The notes under the pieces were generated by a model, which saw nothing but the letters and a program-made list of their open reading frames with translations, had not been told where the DNA came from and did not search any database. Shown one piece after another: positions 28,095 through 62,572 of a stretch of DNA of 64,000 bases. The first letter of the stretch is position 1. Each line of letters opens with the position of its first letter. This stretch comes from Acidobacteriota bacterium (lineage in GTDB: Bacteria > Acidobacteriota > Vicinamibacteria > Vicinamibacterales > JAKQTR01). The stretch lies in the NCBI GenBank assembly GCA_040752275.1, contig JBFMFH010000121.1, forward strand, positions 10,849 through 74,848, given 5' to 3'. Position numbers and translations under genes: made by a program.

Positions 28095-28433
28095 TCAGGG
28101 AGCCTTGCCCTCGTTCTGCTCCTGGCGGGTGACGTTCATGACCGCAATGGCCCGGTTGCCGCCGCCCTCCTGCCGGTAGACCACGCGAACCATGTCGCCC
28201 ACCACCGGGCGGTTGCCAATCTCGGCGCTGGCGATGTCGAGCGCGAGCGGCGGCCCCTCCGGACGGGTCTCGTCCTGCACGGTGAGCATCTGGTTCTGGA
28301 TCGCGACGACCGTACCCTGGACGACGGGGGCCGGTGGGCCGCACGCCGTCGCGAGGAGTCCGATGCTGACGACAAAGACGGCGGGCAGCGGGCGGGGCCT
28401 GCCGCGCCGCGTCCTCGGGATAGAAGGCGTCAT
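28095..28433 (-). CDS. Small lipoprotein, trio copy A (paralogue of 59379..59690)
   Basis: Start MTPSIPRTRRGRPRPLPAVFVVSIGLLATAC at 28433. The mature part aligns with the other copy: QGxVVxxxxxxxxxxVxDE...GDxVRxxYRxxGGxxRAIxxMNxTRQ. Confidence 0.65.
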   Translation of the reverse strand: MTPSIPRTRRGRPRPLPAVFVVSIGLLATACGPPAPVVQGTVVAIQNQMLTVQDETRPEGPPLALDIASAEIGNRPVVGDMVRVVYRQEGGGNRAIAVMNVTRQEQNEGKAP

Positions 28434-28459
28434 GACCACGTTCTCCTCCGCCGCCAACG

Positions 28460-29485
28460 TCACGGCCTGTCGGCCGCTTCGCTCGGCCGCCGCAGTTCCT
28501 GGATGGCCCCGCGCACCATGCCGTAGACGACGACCATCGTCATGGCCGTGACGGCCGCCATCACCAGCCAGGCGGCCGACGTCCCCATGTCCAGCTGCTT
28601 GAGCACGACCGACACGAGCGCGCAGATGACGGTCACGCCGAACATCAAGCGGATGCCGTAGCCGCGGATGTACTTCGTCGCGATGGTCCCGATCTGGGCG
28701 CCGGGGGCGGCGCCGGCCAGCATGAAGAGCACGGCCAGCAGCTCCACGCGCCCCTTCATGGCATACGTGAAGGCGCCGTAGAAGCCCGAGAGCATCACCG
28801 TGAACAGATCGGTGCCTACGGCGACGTAGGTCGGCGCACCAATCAGGTACACGAGCGCCGGCATCATGATGAGGCCTCCGCCGATCCCGAGGAAGCCGGC
28901 CAGGATACCCACCAGCAGCCCGACGAGCGCCGGCAGCCACATCGAGCAGCGCACTTGTGCCACGTCGAAGGTCACGATGGGCGGGACGTTGATGCGGTGC
29001 AGCGTCAGATGCCACCGTACGGCCGACTCGCCCTCGCTCGCCATCCCCGTCCGTTCGAGGGTCCGCTTCTTGAAGTAGTCGTAGAAGACCAGACCGCCGA
29101 TCAGGGCCAGGAACACCACGTACACCCAGCGGATGACGGGGCCCGCTAAGCCGTGGCCCTCGAGCAGCATGACCAGTCTGGCGCCAATCTCGATGCCGAC
29201 CACGTCGAAAGCCAGCATCGTCAGGCCGAGCTTCATGTCGACATTACCGAACTTCGCATGCCGCCTCGTCGAGATGATCGACTTGCCGGCCATGTGACAG
29301 AGGTCGGTGCCCACGGCGAACGGCATCGGAAAGCCGAAGATGTTGAGGGCGGGCGTCACCATCCACGCGCCCCCCATACCGAAGAACCCGCCGAGCACCC
29401 CGACGGCGACGCCGAGCAGCGCCAGCAACAGGATGTTCACGGGCACACCCGAGATGGGCAGGATCACGGTGAAGAAGTCGAACAT
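28460..29485 (-). CDS. TauE/SafE (TSUP) permease, long subfamily, trio copy A
   Basis: 341 aa. GGFFGMGGAWMVTPALNIFGFP and GFLGIGGGLIMMPALVYLIG repeats. Colinear with 59856..60887 and similar to 41195..42298. Confidence 0.85.
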   Translation of the reverse strand: MFDFFTVILPISGVPVNILLLALLGVAVGVLGGFFGMGGAWMVTPALNIFGFPMPFAVGTDLCHMAGKSIISTRRHAKFGNVDMKLGLTMLAFDVVGIEIGARLVMLLEGHGLAGPVIRWVYVVFLALIGGLVFYDYFKKRTLERTGMASEGESAVRWHLTLHRINVPPIVTFDVAQVRCSMWLPALVGLLVGILAGFLGIGGGLIMMPALVYLIGAPTYVAVGTDLFTVMLSGFYGAFTYAMKGRVELLAVLFMLAGAAPGAQIGTIATKYIRGYGIRLMFGVTVICALVSVVLKQLDMGTSAAWLVMAAVTAMTMVVVYGMVRGAIQELRRPSEAADRP

Positions 29486-29506
29486 GGCGTTCTCCGTCGC
29501 GCGCTG

Positions 29507-29812
29507 CTATTCCCGGGAGTGGCGTTTTTCGAGGTCGAGGCCGATGGCACTCACCGCCACGTCCATCACCCAGCCGAGGAACAGACCGAGGATGGCCGTC
29601 AGGCCGACCGCAAAGATCGTGAACAGGAGCCGGTCGGTGTTGTACAGGTTGGCGACAAACAGGTTGAATCCCGACAGGTTCCGGGTGTCCGCCACGTGCA
29701 CGAGCTTGCCGGCCTTCTCGGCCGGCGCCGCCTCGAGGAGCGCGGGGTGGAGGGAGACCAGGACGCATGAGACCCAAAGCGTCAGCTGTGCCCGAAGCGA
29801 GCAAGGCGTCAT
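29507..29812 (-). CDS. Small signal-peptide plus C-terminal-TM protein, trio copy A (paralogue of 60915..61238)
   Basis: The likely start MTPCSLRAQLTLWV at 29812 has GGAGGT 7 nt upstream. Shares KLVxVADTR....NxYNT and a C-terminal TM helix with the other copy. Confidence 0.6.
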   Translation of the reverse strand: MTPCSLRAQLTLWVSCVLVSLHPALLEAAPAEKAGKLVHVADTRNLSGFNLFVANLYNTDRLLFTIFAVGLTAILGLFLGWVMDVAVSAIGLDLEKRHSRE

Positions 29813-29909
29813 CGCGGTACCTCCGGTCGGAATCACACCCACGGGCCGGGGAGCGATTGCCCGTGGCGGCAGGGGGCGCGCCAGAGTCAGGGCCCGGGCG
29901 CGTTCACGG

Positions 29910-30007: not shown

Positions 30008-31069
30008 GTGCTAATGTGGCGGCACGGAAGGGGGTCCGCATTGCCTCCGACTGACGAGTTTCCGCGTCTCGTCCGCGCCGAGTTCAGGTTCCCGGTGCGC
30101 AGTCTGATCGGCGCTGTCGCCTCAATCCCCCTCGCGTTCCTGGCCGTGACGCTGGTGCTCCTGGTTGGCGATCTCGGCATCGGCCACTGGACCATTGCGG
30201 CGATCGTCTCGCTCGGTCTGGTCGTGTCATACGTCGTGGCGGCCACCGTCACGCGCCGGATTGCGCGGCGCCTCCTTGAACTCGAACGCCAGCGGGACGC
30301 CTTCTATCAGGAGTTCTCGCGGCTGTCGAAGGCCGCCTCGCTCGGCGAGATTGCCTCCGGCGTGGCCCACGACATCAACAATCCCCTGGCGGTCATGAAC
30401 GAGGAGGCGGGCTGGCTGCGCGATCTGCTGGGCGGCCCCGGCCTCGACCGCGAGTCGACGCGGCAGGAGTTTGCAGCATCGGTCGAGCAGATCGGCGTTC
30501 AGATCAAACGGGCCAGCAGCGTGACCAGGCGCCTGCTCCATTGGGCGCGCGACATGACCCGCCCGTCGGACGTCATCGACGTGAACCCCCTGCTGACGCG
30601 GACCCTCTACCTGCTGGAGGGGGAACTCACCTCCGCCGACGTGCGGGTCGTGACCCGGCTCGACCCGAAGCTGCCGAAGGCGGTCGGCAGCGAGGCGGAG
30701 ATCACCCAGGTGCTGCTGCACCTCATGAAGAACGCTCTCGACGCGATGAAGGGCGGTGGCGGGACGCTGACCATCACGACTGACCGGTTCGACGGTCTGG
30801 TGCGCGTCGGCATCGCCGATACGGGGCCCGGCATTCCGCCGGAGCTCGTCGCGCGTATCTTCGAACCGTTCTTCACGACGAAGCCCGTGGGCGAGGGCGC
30901 CGGCCTCGGCCTGGCCATCAGCGCGTGGATCGTCCAGCGCGCCGGCGGCCACATCGCGGTGGACAGCGTCCCCGGGTCGGGCGCCACGTTTCATGTCACG
31001 CTCCAGCCTGCAGGTGTGAGCGCAGAACACGGAGGAGAGGATGAGGGTCGTGCGGCTGTTGCTCGTTGA
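30008..31069 (+). CDS. Membrane-anchored histidine kinase (2 TM, no obvious extracytoplasmic domain; HisKA + HATPase_c), HK-1
   Basis: H-box SGVAHDINNPLAV. G-boxes IADTGPGIP and GEGAGLGLAIS. AGGAGG lies 8 nt upstream of the GTG at 30008. Confidence 0.85.
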   Translation: MLMWRHGRGSALPPTDEFPRLVRAEFRFPVRSLIGAVASIPLAFLAVTLVLLVGDLGIGHWTIAAIVSLGLVVSYVVAATVTRRIARRLLELERQRDAFYQEFSRLSKAASLGEIASGVAHDINNPLAVMNEEAGWLRDLLGGPGLDRESTRQEFAASVEQIGVQIKRASSVTRRLLHWARDMTRPSDVIDVNPLLTRTLYLLEGELTSADVRVVTRLDPKLPKAVGSEAEITQVLLHLMKNALDAMKGGGGTLTITTDRFDGLVRVGIADTGPGIPPELVARIFEPFFTTKPVGEGAGLGLAISAWIVQRAGGHIAVDSVPGSGATFHVTLQPAGVSAEHGGEDEGRAAVAR

Positions 31070-31448
31070 CGACGAGGCACGGTTCGTCGAGACGCTGTCG
31101 AAGCGCCTGACCTCCCGTGGGTACTACGTTGAGAAGGCCCTCTCGGGCCAGGAGGCGCTCGACTTGGTGACGAGCCGGCCCTTCGACGTCATGCTCCTCG
31201 ACGTGCGCATGCCGGGCATGGACGGGCTCGAGACGCTCCGCGCCGTGCACAGGCTGCAGCCCCTGGTGAAGGTGATTCTCCTGAGCGGGCACGCGTCGAT
31301 CAACGCTGCCGTTGAGGGCATGCGTTTGGGGGCGTACGACTACCTGCTCAAGCCGACGGACCTCGAGGACATCCTGGCCAAGGTCGAAGCGGCGTTCGAA
31401 AAGAAGCGCCTGGAAGAGGAGCAGCAGGGCGATTGGCGCCAGCCTTGA
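31041..31448 (+). CDS. Receiver-only response regulator, RR-1
   Basis: 135 aa. LLLVDDE, the phospho-acceptor context MLLDVRMPGMDG, and DYLLKP. No output domain. Confidence 0.88.
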   Translation: MRVVRLLLVDDEARFVETLSKRLTSRGYYVEKALSGQEALDLVTSRPFDVMLLDVRMPGMDGLETLRAVHRLQPLVKVILLSGHASINAAVEGMRLGAYDYLLKPTDLEDILAKVEAAFEKKRLEEEQQGDWRQP

Positions 31449-31461
31449 GGGCGGGGCGCGT

Positions 31462-34122
31462 GTGGTGTCGGGCTCTCTGGGAGTAGCCATCGTGGGTCTG
31501 ACGACGCTCGTGCGCAAGCTGTTCGGCCGCGATCAGTGGCGGCCGCTCATCGCCCAGCGCGATACGAAGGCCGCGCTGCGCCTCTCGTACCTCGCATTCA
31601 AGGACCTCATCACCTCGAACGACGAGCTGCTCGAAATCGTGGCCGACATCGAGCAGAAGCTGGAGACGGGCTCCCCCTTCGGGATGACCTACGTCCGGTT
31701 CCGGGCCGTCGCCTGCGCGACCCACACCTACCGGATGATTCTCTGCCTGGACAAGCTGTCCGCCCGGCGGTACCAAGAACTGCATTTCGTCTTTGCGGGC
31801 ATCCAGAAGGCCATCGAGCCCCTGCTCTCCGGCACCCGTCCCGCCCACGCCACGTGTCCGCTCGTCCTTCGTCTGTCGGACATCGACGCCACCAGTGCAG
31901 ACGACGCCGGCGGCAAGGCGGCGAACGTGGCCGAGGTGCGCAACCGGGCGAGGCTGCCGGTCCCCGACGGGTTCGTCGTGTCGACGACGGCCTTCGCCGC
32001 CTTCCTGGCTCACGAACAGCTCGGCGAGGACATTCGCGCGAAGCACGACGGCCTGGCGCCCGACGACCAGCAGTCCCTCCACGACGTGAGCGAAGAGCTG
32101 CAGGCGCTCATTTCGGCGCACCGCGTGCCCGGCCGCCTCGTGCAGTCCATCCTGGGCGCCTACGACGATCTCGCCGCCCGTTGTGGCACCAACCCGCGCG
32201 TGTCGGTGCGATCGAGCGCCGTGGGAGAGGACGGCGAGTTCTCCTTCGCAGGGCAGTACACCAGCGTATTGAACGTGGGGCGCGACGGCCTCGTCGATGC
32301 CTACCGCCGGGTGGTGGCCAGCCTCTATACGCCGCGCGCCATCTTCTACCGGGCGATACACGGCATCCCGGACGAACAGGCGGCCATGGCCGTGCTGTGC
32401 ATGGTACAGATCGACTCGGTCGCCAGCGGCGTGGCCTGTTCGGTCGACCCGGGCCGGCCGGACGCAGGCACGCTGCTCATCACGGGGGCCTGGGGCCTCG
32501 GCATCACGACCGTCGGGGGGTCGGTCAGCCCCGACGTGTGGGAGGTGGCGCGCGCGGCGGGTACGCCCGTTCTTCGCGCCCGCCTCGGCGTCAAGGACAC
32601 GCGCGCCGACGCCAGTCCGGAGGGGGGCGTCGGCTTTCTCGAACTGCCGGAGTCCGTCACGTCGACCTACTGTCTCACCGACACCCAGGTGCGCGACCTG
32701 GCGGCCATCGTCCTCGCGGCCGAGGCCCACTACGGCAAGCCACAGGAGGTGGAATGGGCCCTGGACCGGGCCGGCCGCTTCGTCCTGCTGCAATCGCGGC
32801 CGCTGCACGTCCGCGCCGTCCCGGCAGCCGTGACCGATCTCGACGGCCACGCGGACGGGCATGCCCTGATTCTTACGGGGGCGTCGGCCTCGGCGGGGTG
32901 CGCGTCGGGGCCCGTCTACCACATGTCCGAGTCGGACGACACGTCGCGGTTCCCCGACAGGGCAGTGCTCGTGGCCCGGCACTCGTCGCCCAAGTACGTC
33001 AAGGTGATGGCGCGCGCGGCGGCCATCATCACGGACATCGGGGCCACCACCGGCCACATGGCCTCGCTAGCCCGGGAGTTCGGGGTGCCCGCCGTGCTCG
33101 ACACGCGGTCCGCGACGACGACGCTCGAGCCGGGACAGGTCGTCACGGTCGATGCCAACCGGGGGGCGGTCTACGAGGGACGGGTCGACTGCCTGTTGTC
33201 GGGCTCGGCGGCAGCACCGGCCCGGACGATGACAGGTACACCGACCTATGCGATCCTCCGCCAGGTGGCGGATCGCATCGCGCCCTTGACGCTGACCGAT
33301 CCGAAGAGCGTGAGCTTCCGGCCCGATCAGTGTCGTACCTTCCACGACATCGCCCGCTTCGCCCATGAGAAGGCCTTCGGCGAGATGTTCAGGATGAGCG
33401 ATCGCGTGGCCGACGTGTCGCATCGAGCCGTCAGGCTGGCGGAGCGGCTGCCCTTCGAGCTCCATCTGATCGACATCGGCGGCGGCATTGCCCAGAGTTC
33501 CCCAGGCGAGCCCGCGGTCAGGGCGGCGGCGATCGTGTCGGAGCCGATGGCGGCTCTGCTGCGGGGCATGATGAACCCGCAGCTGCGCTGGTGGGAGCCG
33601 CGGGGCATCTCGCTCTCCGGCTTCTTCGCGGTGGCGACCGAGGCGATGATGAACCCGGCCCACGATGCGGACCAGCGCCGATTGGGCGACAAGAGCTACG
33701 CGATCGTCGCCGAGTCGTACTGCAACTTCAGCTCGCGCATCGGCTACCATTTCGCCGCCGTGGATGCGTACTGTACCGATTCGCTCTCCAGGAACTACGT
33801 GAGCTTCCGTTTCAAGGGCGGCGCCGCCGATGACGCCCGGCGTGCGCGGCGTTGCGCCCTCATCGGGGAGGTCCTCAAGAAGCTCGACTTCCAGACCGAC
33901 CGCCGGGGCGATCTGGTGAACGCCCGCCTCCGCAAGTACCCGCGCGAGGCGCTTCTGGAACGCCTCGATCTGGTCGGCCGGCTCATCGTCGCCACCAGAC
34001 AGCTCGACATGCGGATGGGACGCGGCACTCCGGTTGATTGGTTCGTCCAGGCGTTCTTCGCCGGCAACTACCTCTTCGACCCGGAGCAGGGCCGGGCCGC
34101 GGCCGGAGGGTCTCCGCCGTGA
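31462..34122 (+). CDS. Atypical PpsA-like protein PpsL-1: novel N-domain + PPDK_N ATP-grasp + swivel phospho-His domain + novel C-domain
   Basis: GGKAANVAEV..LPVPDGFVV, VSVRSSAVGEDGEFSFAGQY, and swivel ITDIGATTGHMASLAREFGVPAV with the His codon at 33055-33057. The C-terminal ~300 aa show no PEP-utilizer TIM-barrel motifs. The start (GTG at 31462/31465) is approximate. Confidence 0.8.
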   Translation: MVSGSLGVAIVGLTTLVRKLFGRDQWRPLIAQRDTKAALRLSYLAFKDLITSNDELLEIVADIEQKLETGSPFGMTYVRFRAVACATHTYRMILCLDKLSARRYQELHFVFAGIQKAIEPLLSGTRPAHATCPLVLRLSDIDATSADDAGGKAANVAEVRNRARLPVPDGFVVSTTAFAAFLAHEQLGEDIRAKHDGLAPDDQQSLHDVSEELQALISAHRVPGRLVQSILGAYDDLAARCGTNPRVSVRSSAVGEDGEFSFAGQYTSVLNVGRDGLVDAYRRVVASLYTPRAIFYRAIHGIPDEQAAMAVLCMVQIDSVASGVACSVDPGRPDAGTLLITGAWGLGITTVGGSVSPDVWEVARAAGTPVLRARLGVKDTRADASPEGGVGFLELPESVTSTYCLTDTQVRDLAAIVLAAEAHYGKPQEVEWALDRAGRFVLLQSRPLHVRAVPAAVTDLDGHADGHALILTGASASAGCASGPVYHMSESDDTSRFPDRAVLVARHSSPKYVKVMARAAAIITDIGATTGHMASLAREFGVPAVLDTRSATTTLEPGQVVTVDANRGAVYEGRVDCLLSGSAAAPARTMTGTPTYAILRQVADRIAPLTLTDPKSVSFRPDQCRTFHDIARFAHEKAFGEMFRMSDRVADVSHRAVRLAERLPFELHLIDIGGGIAQSSPGEPAVRAAAIVSEPMAALLRGMMNPQLRWWEPRGISLSGFFAVATEAMMNPAHDADQRRLGDKSYAIVAESYCNFSSRIGYHFAAVDAYCTDSLSRNYVSFRFKGGAADDARRARRCALIGEVLKKLDFQTDRRGDLVNARLRKYPREALLERLDLVGRLIVATRQLDMRMGRGTPVDWFVQAFFAGNYLFDPEQGRAAAGGSPP

Positions 34123-36686
34123 GGATCGAGACGCTGGCCGACCGGCTGCGATCGCTGCGCCGCGCACCCCGGGTGCGGGCGGGCGTCCGGGAGAAGTACG
34201 CCGCCCTGAGCAGGCTCACCGCAGCCAACAACGCGGCGCTGGAGCTCGTCGCGGATCTCCAGCGCTCGGCCACCGGCGAGTTCGTCTTCGATGCCAACTA
34301 CCTGCGTACGGCGTCGGATCGGGCCCTGGCTTACGGGCGCGAGGTCGTCGAGGCGCTCGATATTCTGTCGGACGGACGTGAGCGCAGGCTCGGCGCGCTT
34401 CTCGAGCGCCTGTCCGCCGAGATCGGAAACGTGCTGCGTGACGACCGAAGCATCCCGGAGGGTCCCTACGTCCTCGACTTCAGCCGGATGAAGGGGGTCC
34501 CGGCGGACCTGCTCGGGGCCAAGGTGCGGCGCCTCGCGGAAATCCGCCTCGACGTGGGCGTGCCGGTGCCCGACGGCTTCGCCGTCACGAGCGCGGCCTG
34601 TCACGCGCTGCTGGTTCAGTCCGGATTGTGGGCGTCGATCCAGGCCACCATCCGCAGCCTCACGCTAATCGACAAGGCACGCCTGGCCCGCGCCAGCGGC
34701 GACATCCGAGCCCGCATCCTCGACACGCCGTGGCCTCGGGCCGTGGCGGCCGCCGTCCTCGAGGCATACGATGGGCTCGTCGCGCGGGCCGGACGCGAGT
34801 CGCCGCTGGTGTCGGTGCGGTCGAGCGCCGCCGACGAGGACGGCGAGTTCAGCTTCGCGGGCCAGTACGTCTCGGTCCTGAACGTCGACCGGAGCCGCCT
34901 CTTGCAGGCGTGCAGTGAGGTCGTTGCCAGTCAGTTCGGACCGCGCGCGGTCGTCTACTACAAGTCCCGGGGCCTCGAGAGCGCCCACCACCCCATGGCG
35001 ATCGGCATCGTGCTGATGATCGACGCCCTCGCGAGCGGCGTGCTCTACACCCGGTCTCCCGAGCGGCCAGGCGAGCAGACGATGCTCATCACCGGCACGT
35101 GGGGTCTCGGCCCGTCCACGGCTGACGGTACCGTAAGCCCCGACGTCATCCGTGTGTCGGCGAGACCCGGGCACGATATCGTCAGCTCGACCATCGCCCT
35201 CAAGCCTCGCATGCTGCTCACCCGCGAGGGCGGAGGCGTCATCGAGGTCGACGTGCCGGGCTGGATGCGCGAGCAGCCGTGCCTGACCCGGGCGCAGGTC
35301 GGGATGCTCGCGGCGTACGGATCGCGCCTCGAACGTCACTACGGCGGTCCTCAGGACGTCGAGTGGGCGGTCGACCGGGCTGAGCGGGTCCTGGTGCTGC
35401 AGTCACGCCCGCTGCGCACCGAGGAGCCACGTGCCTCGGCTCCGCTCCACGAACTGCGCAAGGGCCTGCCTCTGTTGCTCTCCGGCGGCATCATCGCGTC
35501 GACGGGCGTTGCTGCCGGGCCCGTTTCCGTGGTGGACGACACCGGGCCCTTCGACGTGCCGGCGGGAGCCGTGGTCGTGTCGCGGGCTGCGGTGCCGGCT
35601 CTCGCCGAAGTCGCGGATCGCGCGTCGGCCTTCGTGACCGAGGTCGGGTCGGTCGCCTGCCACCTGGCCACCGTGGCGCGCGAGTTCCGCATCCCGACCA
35701 TCGTCAACGCGGATGGCGCCAGGGCCGCGCTCAGGCCCGGTCAGGTCGTGACGGTCGACGCCGAGATGGGCCACGTCTACGAGGGGCGCATCGACGCGCT
35801 CCTGGCACTGACCGGAGCCAGGCAGCCCGATCGCGCGATGCTGCAGAGTCCGCTGTTCCGCAGGCTGGGATCGGTCCTGTCTCTCCTGGCGCCCCTGCAC
35901 CTGACCGATCCGAGGAGCCGGGACTTCAAGGCGTCCGGCTGCCAGACGCTGCACGACCTGCTGCGCTACGCGCACGAACGGGCCGTGCAGGAGATGTTCG
36001 TCGCGGGAGGCGAAGTGGCCGAGCTCGGCGCGTCCGTGAAGCTGGCCAGCGATCTGCCGCTCGACTTCTTCCTGGTGGACTTGGGCGGCGGCCTGGCGGG
36101 TGCGGGAGACGAGGACACCGTGACGCCGGAGGCGTTCCGCTGCCGACCGCTCCGGGCGATCTGGGCGGGGCTCGTCGCTGCGCCGTGGGCCGGTGGACCG
36201 GCTGTGGGCTTGGCGAGCCTGGGCTCTCTCCTCGTCACCGGCCTCTCGCGCCGCGAGCCGGCCGGCGGGCCTGAGGCCAACTACGTGCTCGTCACGGATA
36301 GCTACGTGAACATCAGCTTCCGGTTCGGGTTCCACTTCGCCCGAATCGACGCGTCGCTGTCGCAGGACTTCCGGACGAACTACGCCAGCGTGGTGTTTCA
36401 CGGAGGAGCCGCCGGCGCAGGCGGCCGCGAGCGGCGGCTGGACTTCATCGCCGGCGTGCTCGCCTCACGTCCGTGGACCGTCAGCCGCCGCGGCGACGCG
36501 CTGTTCGGTCGGGCGGACAACCTGCCGGACGCGGAGCTGTCGAAGGAACTCGAGACGCTCGGCCGTCTGCTGGTCGTGACGCGGCAGCTCGACACCAGAC
36601 TCGCCGACGACGAGGCGACGGCGCGTGCCGTGGCAGCGTTCGGCGCGGGCGATGACAGCCTGGGCCTCGACGTCACGGACGCGTGA
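34119..36686 (+). CDS. Atypical PpsA-like protein PpsL-2 (tandem paralogue)
   Basis: The GTG at 34119 overlaps the PpsL-1 stop (GTGA). LGAKVRRLAEI..VPVPDGFAV, VSVRSSAADEDGEFSFAGQY, and swivel TEVGSVACHLATVAREFRIPTI with the His codon at 35661-35663. Shares the C-domain motifs. Confidence 0.8.
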   Translation: MRIETLADRLRSLRRAPRVRAGVREKYAALSRLTAANNAALELVADLQRSATGEFVFDANYLRTASDRALAYGREVVEALDILSDGRERRLGALLERLSAEIGNVLRDDRSIPEGPYVLDFSRMKGVPADLLGAKVRRLAEIRLDVGVPVPDGFAVTSAACHALLVQSGLWASIQATIRSLTLIDKARLARASGDIRARILDTPWPRAVAAAVLEAYDGLVARAGRESPLVSVRSSAADEDGEFSFAGQYVSVLNVDRSRLLQACSEVVASQFGPRAVVYYKSRGLESAHHPMAIGIVLMIDALASGVLYTRSPERPGEQTMLITGTWGLGPSTADGTVSPDVIRVSARPGHDIVSSTIALKPRMLLTREGGGVIEVDVPGWMREQPCLTRAQVGMLAAYGSRLERHYGGPQDVEWAVDRAERVLVLQSRPLRTEEPRASAPLHELRKGLPLLLSGGIIASTGVAAGPVSVVDDTGPFDVPAGAVVVSRAAVPALAEVADRASAFVTEVGSVACHLATVAREFRIPTIVNADGARAALRPGQVVTVDAEMGHVYEGRIDALLALTGARQPDRAMLQSPLFRRLGSVLSLLAPLHLTDPRSRDFKASGCQTLHDLLRYAHERAVQEMFVAGGEVAELGASVKLASDLPLDFFLVDLGGGLAGAGDEDTVTPEAFRCRPLRAIWAGLVAAPWAGGPAVGLASLGSLLVTGLSRREPAGGPEANYVLVTDSYVNISFRFGFHFARIDASLSQDFRTNYASVVFHGGAAGAGGRERRLDFIAGVLASRPWTVSRRGDALFGRADNLPDAELSKELETLGRLLVVTRQLDTRLADDEATARAVAAFGAGDDSLGLDVTDA

Positions 36687-51606: not shown

Positions 51607-51771
51607 GAGCACCTCCTCCGGGAAACGGGAAGCTGGCGGGGGCGTCTGAATCACCGCGCGGGACGAGGCGCGGGGCCGGCGTTGGCCGGCAATTCGGGGG
51701 ACCTTCGCTTTCAGCCTGAGACTAGAGCGATGCGGGGGCCGTGTCAAGGACTCCTGGCAATTGAACGAACG

Positions 51772-51800
51772 ACGATAATGCCGGCAGGCTTGGTAGACAA
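51772..51800 (-). promoter_or_regulatory. Candidate sigma-70 promoter (TTGTCT-N17-TATCGT) for the YeiH-like operon, in a divergent AT-richer region
   Basis: The complement of 51795-51800 gives TTGTCT and the complement of 51772-51777 gives TATCGT. This is the same -10 hexamer as the candidate at 27898. Confidence 0.2.
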
Positions 51801-51904
51801 ACACGCTCCAATTGACTCACGTGCTAAGCTTGGGGCGACTGCAGGTGCGACTCCGGCGCGCCTCCCGCTGCGCGCCGCACCTGTCCCGCCCCTTCCCGAA
51901 ACCG

Positions 51905-52156
51905 ATGGCTCCCTGGGGTCCACCCATCATGCCGGGTGACTGGACACCCATCCAAATCGGGATTGTCGATCAGATCGAACGGATCGCCCGCCGGCGCCCG
52001 TGCACACCCGCGCGGGTCTTCAGTGACACAGCTGGCGTCGTGGGGATCGACCGGCACGATGTGCTCGACCGTGGCGCAGGGCTGGACCTCGTCACCGGCA
52101 CCGAACGGGAGCCGCGCTTCGGCCTCACAGGCGAAGCAGGCCCGGTGTGGTCATGA
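51905..52156 (+). CDS. Possible small protein (75-83 aa) translationally coupled to PpsL-4
   Basis: Part of track ORF 51812..52156. ATG candidates at 51905 and 51929. Its TGA (52154-52156) overlaps the PpsL-4 ATG (52153) as ATGA. High third-position GC. I recognise no family resemblance. Confidence 0.3.
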   Translation: MAPWGPPIMPGDWTPIQIGIVDQIERIARRRPCTPARVFSDTAGVVGIDRHDVLDRGAGLDLVTGTEREPRFGLTGEAGPVWS

Positions 52157-56426: not shown

Positions 56427-56813
56427 ATGGCCGATCTGAGGTTGCTCCTGGTCGATGACGAGCCGGACTTCCTCGAGCCGCTCTGCACGCGGCTGACCCG
56501 CCGGCGGGTCGCGTGCGCCACCGCCGCCAGCGGGGAGGAGGCCCTGCAGGCGCTCGCGGACAGCCGTTTCGACTGCGCAGTCGTCGACGTCAAGATGCCA
56601 GGCATGGACGGCCTCGAGCTGCTGCGTCGGATCCGGCGTGACCACCCGGGCACCCCAGTGGTGCTGCTCACGGGTCACGCCTCGGTCGAGATGGGCGTGC
56701 AGGGCATGGAGCTCGGCGCCTTCGACTACCTGCTCAAGCCCGTCGATCTCGACGAGCTGCTCGACGTCGTGCGTCGGGCCGCCGAACAGCCCCGCGAACC
56801 CGGTTTGCCGTGA
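56427..56813 (+). CDS. Receiver-only response regulator, RR-4
   Basis: MADLRLLLVDDEPDF with GGTGGAGG upstream. AVVDVKMPGMDG, DYLLKP. Its stop overlaps the PpsL-5 start (GTGA). Confidence 0.88.
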   Translation: MADLRLLLVDDEPDFLEPLCTRLTRRRVACATAASGEEALQALADSRFDCAVVDVKMPGMDGLELLRRIRRDHPGTPVVLLTGHASVEMGVQGMELGAFDYLLKPVDLDELLDVVRRAAEQPREPGLP

Positions 56814-59353
56814 CACCACGTCCGGACTCGGGCGGGACGGGCGGCCGGCTCAAGGCGGCATGGCAGGCCCTCGTCTCCCGCGCCGCGCAGGCGCCTCCCA
56901 CTGCCGACATGGCGCGGATTCGGCTGATGTACGAGCGGTTTCGCGAGATCCTGGCCGGCAATGACGCCACACTCCAGCTGATTGCCGAAATCGATGAGTG
57001 TCTCGCCGGACGGGCGGTCTTCACCCTCGAGAGCCTCGTGCGGCAGATTCACAAGGCGGAGATGCACGTCTTCGTCATGGTGAAGAACCTGAACCTGCTC
57101 TCCGGCAACGCCCACGGCGGCCTCTACGCGAGATTGCGGGAACTCTCGGCCGAGATCGCGGCGATGAGCCCCTTGTCTGGGGACGCGCCGGAGCAGGCTG
57201 AGGTCATGGCGCTCGAGGATATCCGCCTCGACCGGGCGTTGCTGGTCGGATCGAAAATCGCGCGGCTAGGCGAGGCCAGGGCGCGTGCGGGCGTCACCGT
57301 GCCCGAGGGGTTTGCGATCACCACGGCTGCGTTCTCCGCCTTCATGTCGGCGAACGGCCTCTGGGAGCGCGCGGCGCATCTCGAGGACTTGGTGCAGACC
57401 CGGGGCGACGCGTCCGCCGTGGCGCTCGCCTGCCAGGAAGTGCAGCGGGCGATTCTGGGGGCGCCCGTCCCGGAACGCATCGTCGGAACCATCACCGGCG
57501 CATTTGATCACCTCGCCGAGGGGACCGACCTGCGCGTTGCCATGCGGTCGAGCGCTGTTGGCGAGGATACCTACGTGTCACATGCGGGCCAGTACCATAC
57601 CGAGTTGGGCGTGAGGCGCGAAGGCTTGCTCGACGCGTATCGCGCGGTCATCGCCAGCGCCTATGGCCGTGCGGCCATCTTGTACCGATTCGAACACAAG
57701 ATGGGCACCCGCGAGACGGCCATGGCCGTCGGCTGCCTCCGCATGCTCGACCCCCGGTGCAGCGGCGTCATGTTCACGCGCCGGCCCGACGCGCCAGACA
57801 TCGACGCGGTGGTTGTGGCTGCGGTGCCCGGCCTCGCATCCGCCCTGGTCGCCGGCGAGCAGGACGCACACGTCTGGATCACCGGGGACGATCCCCGGAC
57901 ACCGGCGAGCACGCTGCTCACACCGGACGACCTCTCCGGTCTGTCTGCCATCGCACGCCGCCTCGAATCGTGTCTCGGCGGGCCGCAGGAAGTGGAGTGG
58001 GCCATCGAACGGGCAGGCCCAATCGTCGTCGTCCAGAGCCGCGCGCTCATCGCGACGCAGCGCACGCCCGTTCAGGACACGCCCATCAGCGACGAACCGC
58101 CGCTCCTGGCCGGCGGGCTGACCGCGTGCCCCGGTGTTGGGGCGGGACGCGTGGTGCAGGTGGCGCGAGAGGATGATCTCGATGCGTTTCCTGACCGGGG
58201 CGTGCTCGTCGCCCGGCAGGCGCTCCCGATGTACTCGCGGATCTTGTCTCGGTGCGCCGCCATCGTTACGGACATCGGATCGCCGGCGGGGCACATGGCC
58301 AGCCTGGCCCGCGAGTACGGCGTTCCGGCTCTCGTCGGCTGCGGGGAGGCCACGTCGGTGCTGCTGGCGGGAATGCCGGTCACCGTGGACGCCACGCGGG
58401 CACAGGTGTTCTCCGGATTGCTGGCCGCGTCGGAGTCCGCGCCGGCGCGCCCGGCGCCTGCGGCAGACGCGCCGGCCGTTCAGGCGCTCAGACGGATCGC
58501 CCGCCTGATCACCCCGCTCTCGCTCACCGATCCCGCCAATCCGGTTTTCCGCCCCGCGTCCTGCCAGTCACTGCACGACATCGCGCGCTATGTGCACGAG
58601 AAGACCTTTGAGGTTGTGTTCCACTGGGGCGATGTGAACTGGGGCGATACGCGCCATGCCCGCCGGTTGCAGGTGCATCTGCCGTTGACGATCGATGTCA
58701 TCGACGTCGGGGGCGGGATCAGAGACGCCGGCGCGCGCCGCGATGACGAGCCGCACGCAGGGCCGGCGGCGGGAAGCGCCGGCGCGCCGGGCATCGGTGT
58801 CGAGGATGTGCTCTCAGTGCCCTTCCGCGCGCTGCTCTCCGGCATGCTGGACGCGCGCATCCGGTGGGATCGGCCCCGGCCGCTGTCGGCCCGCGGGTTT
58901 CTGGCCGTGGTTGGGGAACGGATGGCCGGTTTGCCCGGCGAAGCGCTCGGGGTGGGCGGTGCGTCCTACGCTATCGTGTCGGATCGGTACCTGAACTTCT
59001 CGACCAAGGCCGGCTATCACTTCGCCACCATCGACACCTACTGCGGGCACAGCGTCAACAAGAACTACATCCACTTCCGTTTCGCGGGCGGCGCCGCGGA
59101 CGGCGCCCGTCGAGAGCGGCGGGTGCGCTTGATCGCCAGTGTCCTTGCCAGCCTCGATTTCAAAGTGCAGACGCGAGGCGACCTCCTGGTGGCTCGGCTG
59201 GGTCAGTTCGACCAGGCGACGCTGCTCGCGAGACTGGAGGACATGGGTCGGCTCTGCATGTGCACGCGTCAGCTCGACATGCTGATGGACACGGAAGGCA
59301 GCCCCGAGTTCTTCGCCCGGGCGTTTCTCGCCGGCCAGCTCGATCGCTTCTGA
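56810..59353 (+). CDS. Atypical PpsA-like protein PpsL-5
   Basis: VGSKIARLGEA..VPEGFAI, AMRSSAVGEDTYVSHAGQY, and swivel TDIGSPAGHMASLAREYGVPAL with the His codon at 58292-58294. Shares the N- and C-domain motifs. Confidence 0.8.
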   Translation: MTPRPDSGGTGGRLKAAWQALVSRAAQAPPTADMARIRLMYERFREILAGNDATLQLIAEIDECLAGRAVFTLESLVRQIHKAEMHVFVMVKNLNLLSGNAHGGLYARLRELSAEIAAMSPLSGDAPEQAEVMALEDIRLDRALLVGSKIARLGEARARAGVTVPEGFAITTAAFSAFMSANGLWERAAHLEDLVQTRGDASAVALACQEVQRAILGAPVPERIVGTITGAFDHLAEGTDLRVAMRSSAVGEDTYVSHAGQYHTELGVRREGLLDAYRAVIASAYGRAAILYRFEHKMGTRETAMAVGCLRMLDPRCSGVMFTRRPDAPDIDAVVVAAVPGLASALVAGEQDAHVWITGDDPRTPASTLLTPDDLSGLSAIARRLESCLGGPQEVEWAIERAGPIVVVQSRALIATQRTPVQDTPISDEPPLLAGGLTACPGVGAGRVVQVAREDDLDAFPDRGVLVARQALPMYSRILSRCAAIVTDIGSPAGHMASLAREYGVPALVGCGEATSVLLAGMPVTVDATRAQVFSGLLAASESAPARPAPAADAPAVQALRRIARLITPLSLTDPANPVFRPASCQSLHDIARYVHEKTFEVVFHWGDVNWGDTRHARRLQVHLPLTIDVIDVGGGIRDAGARRDDEPHAGPAAGSAGAPGIGVEDVLSVPFRALLSGMLDARIRWDRPRPLSARGFLAVVGERMAGLPGEALGVGGASYAIVSDRYLNFSTKAGYHFATIDTYCGHSVNKNYIHFRFAGGAADGARRERRVRLIASVLASLDFKVQTRGDLLVARLGQFDQATLLARLEDMGRLCMCTRQLDMLMDTEGSPEFFARAFLAGQLDRF

Positions 59354-59378
59354 GGACGGGCCCCTCTTCAGCCTATCG

Positions 59379-59690
59379 TCAGTGGGCTCCGCCCTTCTTG
59401 GCCAGCTCTGCCTGACGTGTCAGATTCATCATCCGGATGGCGCGCTTCTCTCCGCCCGCGACCCGATACGCCAGGCGCACCAGATCGCCCGGCGCGGGCA
59501 ACACCCCGATGTCGGCGCCTGCGAGAGAGAAGGCCACTTCTTCGCTGGGCGGGATCTCGTCCTTGACCACGACCGTGGCTGCGGCCTGGTCGTAGCTGAC
59601 GACGACGCCCTGCAGCACGAGGGGGCGGTCGCCGCACCCGGCGCACGCGGCCAGCGCCGCGCCGACAAGCAGGATCGTGAACAACTTCAT
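59379..59690 (-). CDS. Small lipoprotein, trio copy B
   Basis: Start MKLFTILLVGAALAACAGC (lipobox LAAC) at 59690 with GGGGGAGA upstream. The mature part aligns with 28095..28433. Confidence 0.7.
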   Translation of the reverse strand: MKLFTILLVGAALAACAGCGDRPLVLQGVVVSYDQAAATVVVKDEIPPSEEVAFSLAGADIGVLPAPGDLVRLAYRVAGGEKRAIRMMNLTRQAELAKKGGAH

Positions 59691-59802
59691 CGTCTCCCCC
59701 TGGACGTCTCGAAAGCCGACGGTGTTTGCAGATGAGTCAAGGTTCTCTGCGGCCTTCAAGACGTCTCGCCCCGCCGGAGGCAGGGCAACACCAACACTGT
59801 GA

Positions 59803-59860
59803 TCTAGCGAGGCGGAGCCCGCAAGCACATGCTTCCGGTCCGAGGCGGAGCCTCGCTAGA
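59803..59860. other. 11-bp perfect inverted repeat (TCTAGCGAGGC ... GCCTCGCTAGA) with an internal GAGGCGGAGCC direct repeat, spanning the TauE-4 stop codon
   Basis: Read directly: left arm 59803-59813, right arm 59850-59860, GAGGCGGAGCC at 59809-59819 and 59842-59852. The corresponding spacer in trio copy A is only 26 bp and lacks this element. Confidence 0.6.
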
Positions 59861-60887
59861 GGTTCAGGCTCATGCCGGCGCGCCTGGCGGCGCGCTCGTG
59901 CCGGACACCCTTGACGAGCCAGCCGATGATGACCAGCGAAATCGCGCCGCCGGCCGTCAGAATGGTGATCGACGACGCCAGTTGCAGGCTGAGCTGTTTG
60001 AGGACGACCGATGCGCAGGCGATGAAGATGGTGACCGCAAACAGCAACCGAATCGAATAGCCTTTGACGTACTTGACCGCCACGGTGCCGAGCTGGGCCC
60101 CGACGCTGGCGCCGAGCAGCATCCACATCGCGGCCAGGAGGTCGACGCGTCCCTTGATTCCGTAGGTGAACGCTCCGTACGCGCCGGTGATCATAACCTC
60201 GAAGAGGTCCGTGCCGACCGCAACAGCCGTCGGACAACCGATCAGGTAGATGAGGGCCGGCATGCGGATGAACCCGCCGCCGACGCCGAGCACTGCAGCG
60301 ACGATGCCAGTGGTGAGCCCGACGAGGATCGGCAGCCACAGCGAGCACGTCATGCCGGAGGCCGGGAAGTGGATCATTGGCGGGATGCGCATCCGCTGGA
60401 GGCGCCGGGCGAAGGTCTCGGGCTCGGCCGGCACGCCGTCTGAGATCTCCTGGTAGCGCCGCCGGCGCGTGTGGTTGATGTAGTCGTAGAGCACGTACGA
60501 CCCGATAAAGGTCAGGAAGACGATGTAGGCGATTCGGATGTAGGACTCGGCCAGGCCCGCCCGCTCGAGCGCCATCACCAGCGTCGCCCCGAGTTCCATC
60601 CCGACGGTAGTCCCGATGATCATGGACACACCGAGCTTGATATCGACGTTGCCGAACTTACCGTGCCGGATGGTCGAGACAATCGACTTGCCGCCCATAT
60701 GAGCCAGGTCGGTCCCGATGGCATACGGCATCGGGAAGCCGAAGATGTTGAGCGCGGGCGTCACGATCCAGGCGCCGCCGATGCCAAAGAACCCGCCGCA
60801 GACCCCGACCGTGAAGCCGATGAGCAGAAGGATGAGGACGTTGAAATCGAGACCTGCAATCGGCAGGTAGACGTTCAAGAAGTCCAT
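59856..60887 (-). CDS. TauE/SafE (TSUP) permease, long subfamily, trio copy B
   Basis: 343 aa. GGFFGIGGAWIVTPALNIFGFP and AVLGVGGGFIRMPALIYLIG. Colinear with 28460..29485. Confidence 0.85.
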   Translation of the reverse strand: MDFLNVYLPIAGLDFNVLILLLIGFTVGVCGGFFGIGGAWIVTPALNIFGFPMPYAIGTDLAHMGGKSIVSTIRHGKFGNVDIKLGVSMIIGTTVGMELGATLVMALERAGLAESYIRIAYIVFLTFIGSYVLYDYINHTRRRRYQEISDGVPAEPETFARRLQRMRIPPMIHFPASGMTCSLWLPILVGLTTGIVAAVLGVGGGFIRMPALIYLIGCPTAVAVGTDLFEVMITGAYGAFTYGIKGRVDLLAAMWMLLGASVGAQLGTVAVKYVKGYSIRLLFAVTIFIACASVVLKQLSLQLASSITILTAGGAISLVIIGWLVKGVRHERAARRAGMSLNL

Positions 60888-60914
60888 GTGGAACGCTCCC
60901 CCTCGTGTCCGCCG

Positions 60915-61238
60915 CTACTCGTGGTGTGCGATCCGGCCGAGGTTGATGCCAAGCAGGCCGACGAGCCTGTCGGTGACCAGGCCGAGGATGAGCCCCATCG
61001 CCACCATGGTGACGACGACGAGCGCGCCGAACCACCACAGGTTGGTGTTGTAGACGTCGGCGATCCACCGGCCCAGGCCGGGGTCCATGGCGCGCGTGTC
61101 GGCCACGTTGACGAGCTTCGTCGCCGGCTTGGCCGGAGCAGCCAGCACCGCGCCGGACGCCAGGATCCACGCGAACCAGGCGCCCGTCAGGGTCCGGCGC
61201 CACGCGGGCGACCCTCTCTGTGTGTCCCTCGTGTTCAT
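60915..61238 (-). CDS. Small signal-peptide plus C-terminal-TM protein, trio copy B
   Basis: Start MNTRDTQRGSPAW at 61238 overlaps the RR-5 stop (ATGA). Has KLVNVADTR and a C-terminal TM helix, as in 29507..29812. Confidence 0.6.
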   Translation of the reverse strand: MNTRDTQRGSPAWRRTLTGAWFAWILASGAVLAAPAKPATKLVNVADTRAMDPGLGRWIADVYNTNLWWFGALVVVTMVAMGLILGLVTDRLVGLLGINLGRIAHHE

Positions 61239-61672
61239 GATCCAGCTCCCTCTCTCGTTCCGTTGGCGTGCGCATCGCCGGAGGCCGGATGCCCGACCGC
61301 CGTGACGATCGCGGCGCACAGCGTGTCGATGTCCGCGGGCTTCTGCAGGAAGTCTGCCGCCCCGATCTGCATCCCGTCGATGCCGCTTTCCACCGTCCCA
61401 TGGCCGGTCAGTACGATCACACGCACGGATGGTGTGCGCCGCCGCACCCGGCGCAACGTCTCCAGCCCGTCGGTGCCAGGCATCTTCAGGTCAAGGACCA
61501 ACACGTCCGCCTCGCCGGCTTCGGCGCGGCGGACTGCGTCCTCTCCGGTGAACACGGCGTCAGCGGTAAAGCCTCGCCGCTGGAGCCGTGACGCCAGCGC
61601 CGTGGCGAAGTCGACTTCGTCGTCCACCACGAGCACTCTGATCGGTGCGAACGCGGGGTCCGAGACCGCCAC
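61235..61672 (-). CDS. Receiver-only response regulator, RR-5
   Basis: GTG start with AGGAGG upstream. IRVLVVDDE, LVLDLKMPGTDG, DFLQKP. No output domain. Confidence 0.85.
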   Translation of the reverse strand: MAVSDPAFAPIRVLVVDDEVDFATALASRLQRRGFTADAVFTGEDAVRRAEAGEADVLVLDLKMPGTDGLETLRRVRRRTPSVRVIVLTGHGTVESGIDGMQIGAADFLQKPADIDTLCAAIVTAVGHPASGDAHANGTREGAGS

Positions 61673-61765
61673 TCGCCCTCCTTCGGCACCGGCACGCCTG
61701 TCTATGGCGCGGCGGCCCTGAGCGCGACTCGTCGGGCAGAGACGTCTGGCCGACCCTTTGCCCGT

Positions 61766-62572
61766 CTATACGTCGATGTCCGGAGCCACTTCCAGGCGCA
61801 CATCGGTCACGCCCGCGACGTCGTGCACGATCGCCTCGACCTCGGTGAACTGCACGCCTGGCGACAGCCGTCCCCTGATGGTGACCGAGCCGTGGCGGGC
61901 GACGACGGCCACCTCGAGGTCAGCGGTGCGCGGCGCCCGCGCCAGCGTCGCTCGGACGCGGCTGGCCAGGACGAGGTTGTCCATCGCCGCCTGGCTTTCG
62001 ACCGTCTCGGCAAAGTACGGCATGGCCGCTGCTGACGCGATCAGGTCGCACGCGCCCGGGATGTCGATGGACGCCAGATTCACCACGACGTCGTAGAGCG
62101 AGGGATCGCCCCAGTCGACGCCGTAGAGATACTGGGTCCACTTCTGCCGGTCCTGGTCCATCTGCTGGACGTGGGCCAGCGCCTCGGCTTCGCTCAGTTT
62201 GCGGCGGTCCTGGACCGCCGCAACGCGGTAGGCCATCGACGCGATGATGCGCGTCCGCAGGACGTGGCTCACCCCGCGCAGCAGCAGGTGCCCGGCGTTG
62301 CCATGGTAGACGGCCTTGCCGTGCTGCACTTCTTCGGTCAATGCTGCCTGGATCAACGTGAGATAGACGTAGCGCTTGTGGCGGAACCGGTCCCAGAACG
62401 AGGGCGGCTTCGCCAGCGCGTCGTGGAGTTCTTCCTGCGGCACGCCGTAGGCGGCGGCCCGCTCCACGATCACGTCCCGGTCGATACACCGGTATCCCAG
62501 CTTGTCGGCCAGACACCCGCCGAGCATCTTGCCGCCGCTGAACGACCCTCTCGAGATAGTGATCACTGCCAT
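61766..62572 (-). CDS. Cytidylate-kinase-like (Cytidylate_kin2) + BON domain protein, copy 2
   Basis: 268 aa starting MAVITISRGSFSGGKML. Gapless alignment to 46472..47278, and the first ~50 nt are nearly identical at the DNA level. BON-like C-terminus EVAVVARHGSVTIRGRLSPGVQFTEVEAIVHDVAGVTDV. Confidence 0.7.
   Translation of the reverse strand: MAVITISRGSFSGGKMLGGCLADKLGYRCIDRDVIVERAAAYGVPQEELHDALAKPPSFWDRFRHKRYVYLTLIQAALTEEVQHGKAVYHGNAGHLLLRGVSHVLRTRIIASMAYRVAAVQDRRKLSEAEALAHVQQMDQDRQKWTQYLYGVDWGDPSLYDVVVNLASIDIPGACDLIASAAAMPYFAETVESQAAMDNLVLASRVRATLARAPRTADLEVAVVARHGSVTIRGRLSPGVQFTEVEAIVHDVAGVTDVRLEVAPDIDV

Follow-up and report, generated by a model that had tools for sequence, protein, structure and literature searches.

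We analysed a 64,000-nucleotide stretch of contig JBFMFH010000121.1 from an Acidobacteriota bacterium (hereafter the window; ~67% G+C), in which a block of genes at positions 28,095–62,572 encodes five proteins resembling the phosphoenolpyruvate (PEP) synthase PpsA, here termed PpsL, together with two-component signalling proteins and membrane permeases. Genes were called from third-position GC bias and then annotated with Pfam and NCBIfam. The block contained five PpsL genes, four histidine kinases (HKs), five receiver-only response regulators (RRs), three Cytidylate_kin2-like (CK2) genes, three TSUP/TauE permeases of 341–367 amino acids (aa), hppA and a YeiH-like gene. A preliminary description made from the DNA letters alone had named the same families, including the three long TSUP permeases, and all of them lay where it had placed them or a few bases away; its placement of the block between aprBA/qmo/dsr/sat and sirC/cobA was also correct. 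The upstream flank, entirely on the minus strand, comprises hemA, a second dsrMK-like pair, sat, dsrMKJOP, a DsrL/GltD-like gene, dsrBA, qmoABC and aprBA, and the downstream flank comprises sirC and cobA. The clustering of these families in the block is far beyond chance, and a TauE gene and an Alph_Pro_TM gene located just outside its start (26789-27712 and 25942-26808) are part of the same system. The features are listed below by coordinates and strand; TM denotes transmembrane and ORF open reading frame.

25942-26808 (-): Alph_Pro_TM (PF09608/TIGR02186) membrane protein, partner of the next TauE, directly downstream of aprB (Pfam E 3.9e-36)
26789-27712 (-): fourth TSUP/TauE permease, short type, 307 aa (Pfam TauE E 2.3e-46)
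28095-28439 (-): trio-1 small lipoprotein, lipobox LATAC/G (cleavage before G); sub-threshold DUF4881 match, E 0.15
28460-29485 (-): trio-1 long TSUP/TauE, DVU0149-type (Pfam TauE E 2.7e-45)
29507-29842 (-): trio-1 DVU0150-family small signal-peptide/TM protein, 38% identical to the L086 PF28216 protein; start may be the ATG near 29812
30008-31069 (+): short membrane-bound HK with HisKA and HATPase_c
31041-31448 (+): receiver-only RR (Response_reg E 5e-30)
31462-34122 (+): PpsL-1, with a three-helix N-domain, ATP-grasp, phosphohistidine swivel domain and novel C-terminal domain (Pfam, NCBIfam, structure models)
34119-36686 (+): PpsL-2, translationally coupled to PpsL-1 through GTGA (Pfam)
36696-38525 (+): dCache HK (Pfam)
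38538-38948 (+): receiver-only RR (Pfam)
39072-39515 (+): receiver-only RR (Pfam)
39573-41186 (+): HAMP HK (Pfam)
41195-42298 (-): long TSUP/TauE permease, 367 aa (Pfam TauE E 1.8e-33)
42381-42395 (-): exact sigma-54 -24/-12 consensus, TGGCACGGCTGTTGC, within the 3'-terminal part of the long CK2 gene; the TSUP start (42298) follows ~83 nt downstream
42370-43884 (-): long CK2-like protein; besides Cytidylate_kin2 it has a BON-like region and, in a C-terminal extension, two predicted TM helices (Pfam)
44219-46435 (-): hppA, membrane H+/Na+-pyrophosphatase (Pfam H_PPase E 1.5e-249)
46472-47278 (-): CK2 and BON protein; gaps of 36 nt separate it from PpsL-3 (upstream) and from hppA (downstream)
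47315-49900 (-): PpsL-3 (Pfam, NCBIfam)
49921-50076 (-): ~52-aa single-TM ORF (MAEQPKLAEEL...) between the YeiH-like gene and PpsL-3; third-position GC 0.87, no family
50104-51804 (-): YeiH-like (PF03601) membrane protein with an N-terminal extension (Pfam, NCBIfam)
52153-54711 (+): PpsL-4 (Pfam, NCBIfam)
54704-56386 (+): dCache HK, overlapping the end of PpsL-4 by 8 nt (Pfam)
56430-56813 (+): receiver-only RR, GTGA overlap onto PpsL-5 (Pfam)
56810-59353 (+): PpsL-5 (Pfam, NCBIfam)
59379-59693 (-): trio-2 small lipoprotein; DUF4881 C-terminal match, E 0.023
59856-60887 (-): trio-2 long TSUP/TauE permease, 55% identical to the trio-1 TSUP (Pfam)
60915-61238 (-): trio-2 DVU0150-family small membrane protein, homologous to the trio-1 copy
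61235-61672 (-): receiver-only RR, ATGA overlap onto the DVU0150-like gene (Pfam)
61766-62572 (-): CK2 and BON protein heading the trio-2 operon, 65% identical to 46472-47278 (Pfam)

All five PpsL paralogs carried an ATP-grasp domain (PF01326, PPDK_N; E 1e-55 to 4e-82) and a phosphohistidine swivel domain (PF00391, PEP-utilizers mobile domain) as their only recognised domains. Pfam found no match to the PEP/pyruvate TIM barrel PF02896 in any of the five, in agreement with the preliminary description. Consistent with this, the PpsA model was matched over positions ~6–469 of 798 only, and sequence matches in the PDB agreed. Scores fell below the cutoffs of both PpsA equivalogs (231–331 bits for NF005057, cutoff 598; 224–318 bits for TIGR01418, cutoff 740) and of the rifampin phosphotransferase model (161–211 bits, cutoff 999). 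The paralogs were mutually 29–39% identical in full-length alignment, which indicates anciently diverged copies kept side by side rather than recent duplicates. Alignment of the five with 8 distant homologs, taken from other lineages, showed the same catalytic His (H532 in PpsL-1 numbering) and the same ATP-grasp residues K152, R250, E256, Q265, E431 and R446 in all 13 sequences, and ATP-dependent autophosphorylation of PpsL would thus be expected. The catalytic His is held in a T-x-H motif, with the Thr two residues before it present in three of the five paralogs.

The remainder of each protein is, judging from structure models, a new putative acceptor domain: in place of the barrel stands a separate domain of ~290 aa that is strongly conserved, 31 residues, most of them polar, being invariant among 19 sequences. 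Its AlphaFold model (pLDDT 79, pTM 0.73) was alpha/beta with an antiparallel beta-meander; Foldseek of the domain alone against the PDB returned nothing better than E 0.07, and the domain had no Pfam relative. We rejected a diverged PEP/pyruvate (beta-alpha)8 barrel, with which the secondary-structure order of the model was incompatible, and also a hidden HK core, for which a long helix with H-D-x-x-R-x-x-H-E had been considered (hhalign probability 0.7%). The full-length model (pLDDT 81.5) added an N-terminal bundle of three long helices and matched PEP synthase, HpeI, rifampin phosphotransferase and PPDK in Foldseek; the best of these matches, PEP synthase 2ols, covered 459 columns only, equal to the span of the ATP-grasp and His domains. 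A profile of the C-terminal domain recovered 1,566 representative clusters from 1.84 billion proteins, nearly always at the end of proteins of ~830–895 aa. Rare variants carried an N-terminal low-molecular-weight phosphatase domain or an additional tail of ~200 aa.

PpsL resembles PpsA and PPDK in the order of its ATP-grasp and swivel domains, in the T-x-H His and in its best sequence and fold matches, but differs from them in having an unrelated ~290-aa alpha/beta domain instead of the TIM barrel and an extra N-terminal three-helix domain. The combination of ATP-grasp and swivel-His with a lineage-specific acceptor domain is shared with rifampin phosphotransferase (RPH), PigC/RedH, HpeHI and phenylphosphate synthase. 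Unlike RPH, in which the His domain is C-terminal and follows the substrate domain, PpsL has a central His domain, and unlike any of these acceptor-swapped dikinases it sits in operons with two-component and permease genes, with an acceptor domain that matches none of theirs. The likeness to Enzyme I and EI-Ntr of the phosphotransferase system (PTS), namely a phosphohistidine swivel domain in a phosphorelay linked to membrane transport, is one of logic only, although EI-Ntr also has an N-terminal regulatory domain. The PTS donor is PEP, not ATP, and the block is without HPr, EIIA/B and EIIC; no HPr or EII domain was found by Pfam among the block proteins.

The PpsL genes are closely interlinked with the two-component genes. 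The four HKs, all with HisKA and HATPase_c, comprised two dCache proteins, one HAMP protein and one short protein, and none of the five RRs had an output domain; these numbers had been given correctly beforehand. Overlaps joined PpsL to PpsL (GTGA, 34119-34122), RR to PpsL (GTGA, 56810-56813), RR to a DVU0150-like gene (ATGA, 61235-61238), PpsL to HK (8 nt, 54704-54711) and HK to RR (29 nt). The ATGA/GTGA overlaps across families that had been noted earlier thus stood at 34119, 56810 and 61235, but not at 52153, where the partner ORF (51812-52156) is doubtful. That ORF matched no family and had weak codon bias, and it was treated as intergenic; the region around it looks like a probable divergent promoter region.

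One genome per species was scanned with the C-terminal domain, which gave at least 588 relatives, and the best 80 loci were surveyed after annotation with profiles built from the window's own proteins. All of the best 80 came from Acidobacteriota (including Thermoanaerobaculia) or from sulfate-reducer lineages of Thermodesulfobacteriota: Desulfobulbus, Desulfobacula, Desulfovibrionaceae, Desulfomicrobium, Desulfomonile, Desulfobacca, Syntrophobacteraceae, Desulforhabdus, Desulfarculaceae and Desulfonatronovibrio. Additional PpsL members were found in Desulfonatronum, Desulfacinum, Desulfurivibrionaceae and Desulfobulbia. Over the 50 loci of at least 15 kb, RR genes were present in 49/50, HK genes in 46/50, TSUP genes within 10 kb of PpsL in 40/50 and DVU0150-like genes in 35/50, compared with 3/50 for CK2, 2/50 for aprA and 1/50 for hppA. 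The co-occurrence proposed in the preliminary description was thus borne out for PpsL, TSUP/DVU0150-like, RR and HK genes, which were neighbours in most of these loci across two phyla. A TSUP gene was abutted on the same strand by 45 of 48 DVU0150-like genes. For a genome of ~3.5 Mb with some nine TSUP genes, as in D. vulgaris (count from PMC5840216), we estimate that ~5% of 20-kb windows would contain a TSUP gene by chance; the share observed was 80%.

The arrangement of these genes was also conserved. In the recurrent layout, a DVU0150-like gene, a TSUP gene and a lipoprotein gene, in order of transcription, were divergent from PpsL, with HK/RR pairs around them. Acidobacteriota and Desulfobulbus shared the order HK-RR-PpsL-PpsL-HK-RR, in which the tandem PpsL pair was kept. 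All 20 RRs that directly preceded PpsL in other loci were most similar to the window RR at 31041 and thus form one subfamily. L002, a relative at 71% identity, had the order qmo-aprBA-Alph_Pro_TM-TauE-lipoprotein-TauE-DVU0150-HK-RR-PpsL-PpsL, continuing as HK-RR-TauE-[Alph_Pro_TM::PpsL fusion]-hppA. A second genome (L083) carried the Alph_Pro_TM::PpsL fusion beside CK2/BON, a trio and aprB, and the Alph_Pro_TM-TauE pair followed aprBA in both of these genomes as in the window. Other fusions were a CK2::receiver protein in one genome, Desulfobulbus elongatus, and a phosphatase (LMWPc)::PpsL protein adjoining MFS and chromate-type oxyanion transporters. These fusions support a functional link among the parts.

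The permeases themselves occur with dedicated partners. The duplicated three-gene trio reported earlier is real: in each copy, a TSUP gene stands between an upstream gene for a small signal-peptide/TM protein and a downstream gene for a small lipoprotein. The two TSUPs were 55% identical, and the two small upstream proteins were 35% identical. All four TauE proteins of the window (117–159 bits) exceeded the PF01925 gathering cutoff of 32.6 bits. The long TSUPs had an insert of ~50 aa between their two halves, which could be a regulatory loop; within it, the motif W-H-x-x-L-H-x-I-x-x-P-P was common to the window protein at 28460-29485 and to that at 5219-6271 of a locus from a Nitratidesulfovibrio relative (L086). 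In precomputed Pfam labels, the small protein upstream of TSUP is 'DVU0150' (PF28216) and the delta-proteobacterial lipoprotein is DUF4881, the PF28216 label being taken from hits on close homologs (L002 and L083 among them) and not on the window proteins. The window lipoproteins (~105–115 aa) matched just the last ~25 DUF4881 positions, weakly (E 0.02–0.15). The trio-1 motif GDMVRVVYRQ..RAIAVMNVTR resembles the DUF4881 C-terminus, and its gene occupies the same position as DUF4881 in L001 and L086. The trio-2 DVU0150-like protein (60915-61238) weakly matched Alph_Pro_TM in its C-terminal TM segment (E 0.06), so that a relationship between both kinds of TSUP partner is possible. Relative to the TSUP family at large (TauE/SafE; CysZ of C. 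glutamicum), which shares PF01925 and is tied to sulfite, sulfonate and sulfate transport, these permeases differ in being of the long type with the central insert and in having partners of their own (DVU0150-like protein and lipoprotein, or Alph_Pro_TM).

The order DVU0150-family gene, TauE, lipoprotein, present twice in the window, is that of a DVU0145–0150-type cluster. In D. vulgaris Hildenborough, the DVU0145–0150 cluster has published expression data and is a predicted sigma-54 regulon (PMC4265775, PMC4641369); it is reported to be up in sulfate-free syntrophy and down on return to sulfidogenic growth, with no function assigned (PMC4265775). In L086, DVU0150, TauE, DUF4881, two unknown genes and an RR follow one another on one strand, divergent from a sigma-54 enhancer-binding protein (EBP) and PpsL on the other, and this arrangement equals the published DVU0145–DVU0150 plus DVU0151 layout (PMC4641369). 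Furthermore, the published DVU0149 qPCR primer matched the L086 TauE gene with two mismatches, and an exact sigma-54 promoter consensus lay upstream of the L086 DVU0150 gene. The window TSUP at 28460-29485 was 52% identical to the L086 TauE, and the window small protein 38% identical to the L086 DVU0150 protein. A homology search from N. liaohensis PpsL gave Nitratidesulfovibrio sp. as the closest named match, with no Hildenborough protein among the matches.

An EBP was located between trio and PpsL in Desulfovibrionaceae and Desulfarculaceae, and the Sigma54_activat domain was present in L025, L070 and L086. The EBPs immediately upstream of PpsL in these loci (L025 2068-4587, L070 5577-8261 and L086 7154-9997) had an N-terminal region of 475–550 aa without a Pfam domain; a comparable N-terminal feature has been noted for DVU0151 (PMC4641369). 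By Pfam, Sigma54_activat was absent from all block genes, and no EBP was encoded in the window. A sigma-54 scan of the window gave 50 matches at no more than 2 mismatches, compared with 61 expected, and hence no overall enrichment. The site upstream of the TSUP at 41195-42298 was the sole exact consensus in the window, and it is a consensus match only. The window system resembles the D. vulgaris cluster in its trio and receiver-only RR, but its trios are wired to HK/RR, CK2/BON and PpsL without an EBP, and its lipoproteins are short, with the DUF4881 C-terminal motif only.

Profile searches assigned none of PpsL, CK2 and the trio to a characterised pathway, as expected from the preliminary description. 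Its claim that no described system has this combination stood for PpsL and for the combination as a whole, which appear undescribed in the searchable literature, but not for the trio with its receiver, which corresponds to DVU0145–0150 and whose DVU0150 and DUF4881 families are in Pfam. In the open-access literature, we found no functional description of DVU0146–0152, PF09608, PF13189, PF28216, DUF4881 or TSUP proteins of sulfate reducers.

The CK2 proteins, three in number as previously counted and all with Cytidylate_kin2, satisfied only the broad PF13189 family, with scores of 29–34 bits against the CMP-kinase model TIGR02173 (cutoff 102). Their Walker A motif read GSFSGGK with M, L, T, R or I as the next residue, instead of canonical GxxxxGK[ST]; in the long window copy Arg takes the place of the Walker Lys, in L081 Glu does, and the L047 fusion has lost the motif. 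A role as true adenylate/cytidylate kinases was weakened by this non-canonical, non-conserved P-loop. A BON domain, which is membrane-binding, was found in two of the three window proteins, the long third copy ending in two predicted TM helices, and CK2/BON homologs were 60–90% identical across many Acidobacteriota. PpsL and permease genes were present in all three CK2/BON contexts that we inspected separately, with TauE and Alph_Pro_TM in two and YeiH-like and DASS genes in the third. One of these contexts (L085) had the order qmoABC-sat-CK2/BON-TauE-PpsL-Alph_Pro_TM, and another (L084) had DsrE-cobA-sirC-PpsL-CK2/BON beside YeiH, a DASS transporter, RR and HK. PSRP/PDRP target the Thr of the T-x-H motif in PpsA and PPDK. 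Because this Thr occurs in three PpsL paralogs, including one that adjoins CK2, it might be speculated by analogy that CK2 regulates PpsL as PSRP/PDRP regulate PpsA/PPDK.

Building on the domains, invariant catalytic residues, synteny, fusions and lineages described above, we infer that the block forms one conserved accessory system of dissimilatory sulfate reducers rather than a chance assembly, in which two-component pathways would govern a phosphohistidine enzyme of the dikinase type, and this enzyme would be coupled to permeases for sulfur oxyanions. We give this explanation as a whole a probability of about 0.5. Membrane sensor kinases (dCache, HAMP) that sense the periplasm would phosphorylate the receiver-only RRs, and these, having no DNA-binding output, would control the neighbouring PpsL proteins, whose genes are often translationally coupled to theirs, through direct contact; the coupling and the conserved HK-RR-PpsL order both point to such contact. 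The ATP-grasp domain of PpsL would then phosphorylate the invariant His of the swivelling domain, which would hand the phosphate to an acceptor bound by the novel C-terminal domain. Adjacency and the Alph_Pro_TM::PpsL fusions suggest that PpsL output is tied to the TSUP modules (DVU0150-like protein, TSUP and lipoprotein; TSUP and Alph_Pro_TM). Ties to YeiH may exist as well, and in Acidobacteriota also ties to HppA and to membrane-tethered P-loop proteins of the CK2/BON type. The net effect would be an adjustment of sulfur-oxyanion traffic, and possibly of pyrophosphate (PPi) handling, to sulfate availability. The earlier proposal of a phosphotransfer network that gates sulfate/sulfite transport or pyrophosphatase energy coupling was thus supported in part, by the co-occurrence and by the link to sulfate reducers; the gating itself is a hypothesis. 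The transported anion is probably a sulfur oxyanion, as suggested by precedent within the TSUP family, by the lineages in which the system occurs and by its sat/apr/qmo, YeiH and DASS neighbours. In a more far-reaching version, which we consider doubtful, an RR-switched PpsL relay would directly phosphorylate or energise TSUP complexes or CK2/BON as an ATP-driven, PTS-like system for sulfur oxyanions that is specific to dissimilatory sulfate reducers, and the C-terminal domain would be a new phosphotransfer fold.

Several observations weigh against this explanation. Expression of the D. vulgaris cluster points to sulfate-free growth and not to active sulfate respiration (PMC4265775), and TSUPs, which are abundant in sulfate reducers, have no assigned role or substrate there (PMC5840216). 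The link to sulfate reducers that had been proposed earlier held for the sampled members, which came from dsr-carrying Acidobacteriota or sulfate-reducer lineages, but this restriction is sampled (best 80 of at least 588 relatives) and not proven; adjacency to dsr/apr/sat was confined to Acidobacteriota, the Thermodesulfobacteriota showing none but a dsrK-like profile match in L038. Likewise, hppA adjacency was seen in Acidobacteriota only. CK2 was no more than 10 kb from PpsL in its three long loci, two of them from Thermodesulfobacteriota (L047 and L081), and the three separately inspected CK2/BON contexts were all acidobacterial-type. Some PpsL genes were orphans with no permease nearby (L088 and several surveyed loci), and the PpsL acceptor could be a small molecule unrelated to transport.

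This last point leads to an alternative that we regard as rather unlikely, yet the least so among those weighed here, in which PpsL is a metabolic small-molecule dikinase for a hydroxyl compound, perhaps a hydroxy-sulfonate, with the TSUP as carrier of its substrate and the HK/RR genes tuning its activity. The superfamily often swaps its acceptor domain (RPH, PigC/RedH and HpeI are among the NCBIfam and Foldseek relatives), the conserved polar residues of the C-terminal domain resemble an active site, and TSUP, YeiH, DASS, MFS and ChrA neighbours would fit a transporter-plus-enzyme pair. However, five paralogs, most with their own HK-RR pair and two directly after a receiver-only RR, look more like signalling outputs; other catabolic genes were absent from the loci; and the Alph_Pro_TM::PpsL fusions put the enzyme on the membrane protein itself. 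It is improbable that PpsL serves instead as a phosphodonor for receiver domains, parallel to the classical kinases and with the C-terminal domain as docking site. RR genes are translationally coupled to PpsL, transfer from His~P to Asp is standard two-component chemistry, and RRs outnumber HKs in many loci, but the C-terminal domain resembles neither the HK core nor any solved fold, and cognate HKs adjoin the RRs, so that a second phosphodonor is not required.

A PPDK-type dikinase working in the ATP-forming direction uses PPi and AMP, both of which are released by Sat together with APS reductase. A salvage system in which PpsL (running in that direction), CK2 and HppA recycle AMP and PPi at the membrane would draw on this established stoichiometry of sulfate activation, on the operon order PpsL-3, CK2/BON, hppA in the window, on the sat-CK2/BON-TauE-PpsL order in L085 and on the place of CK2 in a family with a nucleoside monophosphate kinase-like fold. 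We consider it a poor candidate, since no phosphoryl donor is evident, the CK2 P-loop is non-canonical with CMP-kinase scores of only ~29–34 bits against 102, most PpsL loci are without hppA and CK2, and the HK/RR and TSUP linkage is left unexplained. Least credible by far is that these genes are unrelated neighbours or mis-annotated ordinary PEP synthases. The database names 'pyruvate, water dikinase' and 'phosphoenolpyruvate synthase' would suit the latter, but this reading is contradicted: the PEP/pyruvate domain is replaced, scores are below the equivalog cutoffs, synteny is kept across two phyla and fusions exist.

How sulfate, sulfite and related anions move across the membrane of sulfate reducers, and how this movement is regulated, is still an unresolved question of the field. 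The module described here ties a defined TSUP subtype and its partners to a dedicated sensing and phosphotransfer apparatus, and in Acidobacteriota places it directly beside the core sat/apr/qmo/dsr genes. It also supplies genomic context for the long-unexplained DVU0145–0150 'syntrophy' cluster of D. vulgaris and defines a compact new domain family. Homologs occur in the cultured strains Desulfobulbus elongatus, Desulforhabdus sp. TSK, Desulfacinum hydrothermale and Nitratidesulfovibrio liaohensis, which opens the hypothesis to experiment.

An Rfam scan of the whole window returned zero RNA families. In the upstream flank, a second, divergent DsrK-like/DsrM-like pair lay at 1828-4385 (-), between hemA and sat (DsrK score 324 bits, cutoff 400), separate from the canonical dsrMKJOP at 7314-12423. 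Two genes lay downstream of dsrAB at 13266-15300 (-): one encodes a GltD/DsrL-like Fe-S flavoprotein with NAD(P) binding, which scored 583 bits against NF009410, and the other, an ORF of 101 aa, may be DsrD. Two ORFs without NCBIfam matches were located between qmoA and aprA at 22368-23536 (-); in L002 and L085, the same gap contained a CxxCxxCC (PF03692) protein and an Ogr_Delta zinc-finger protein.

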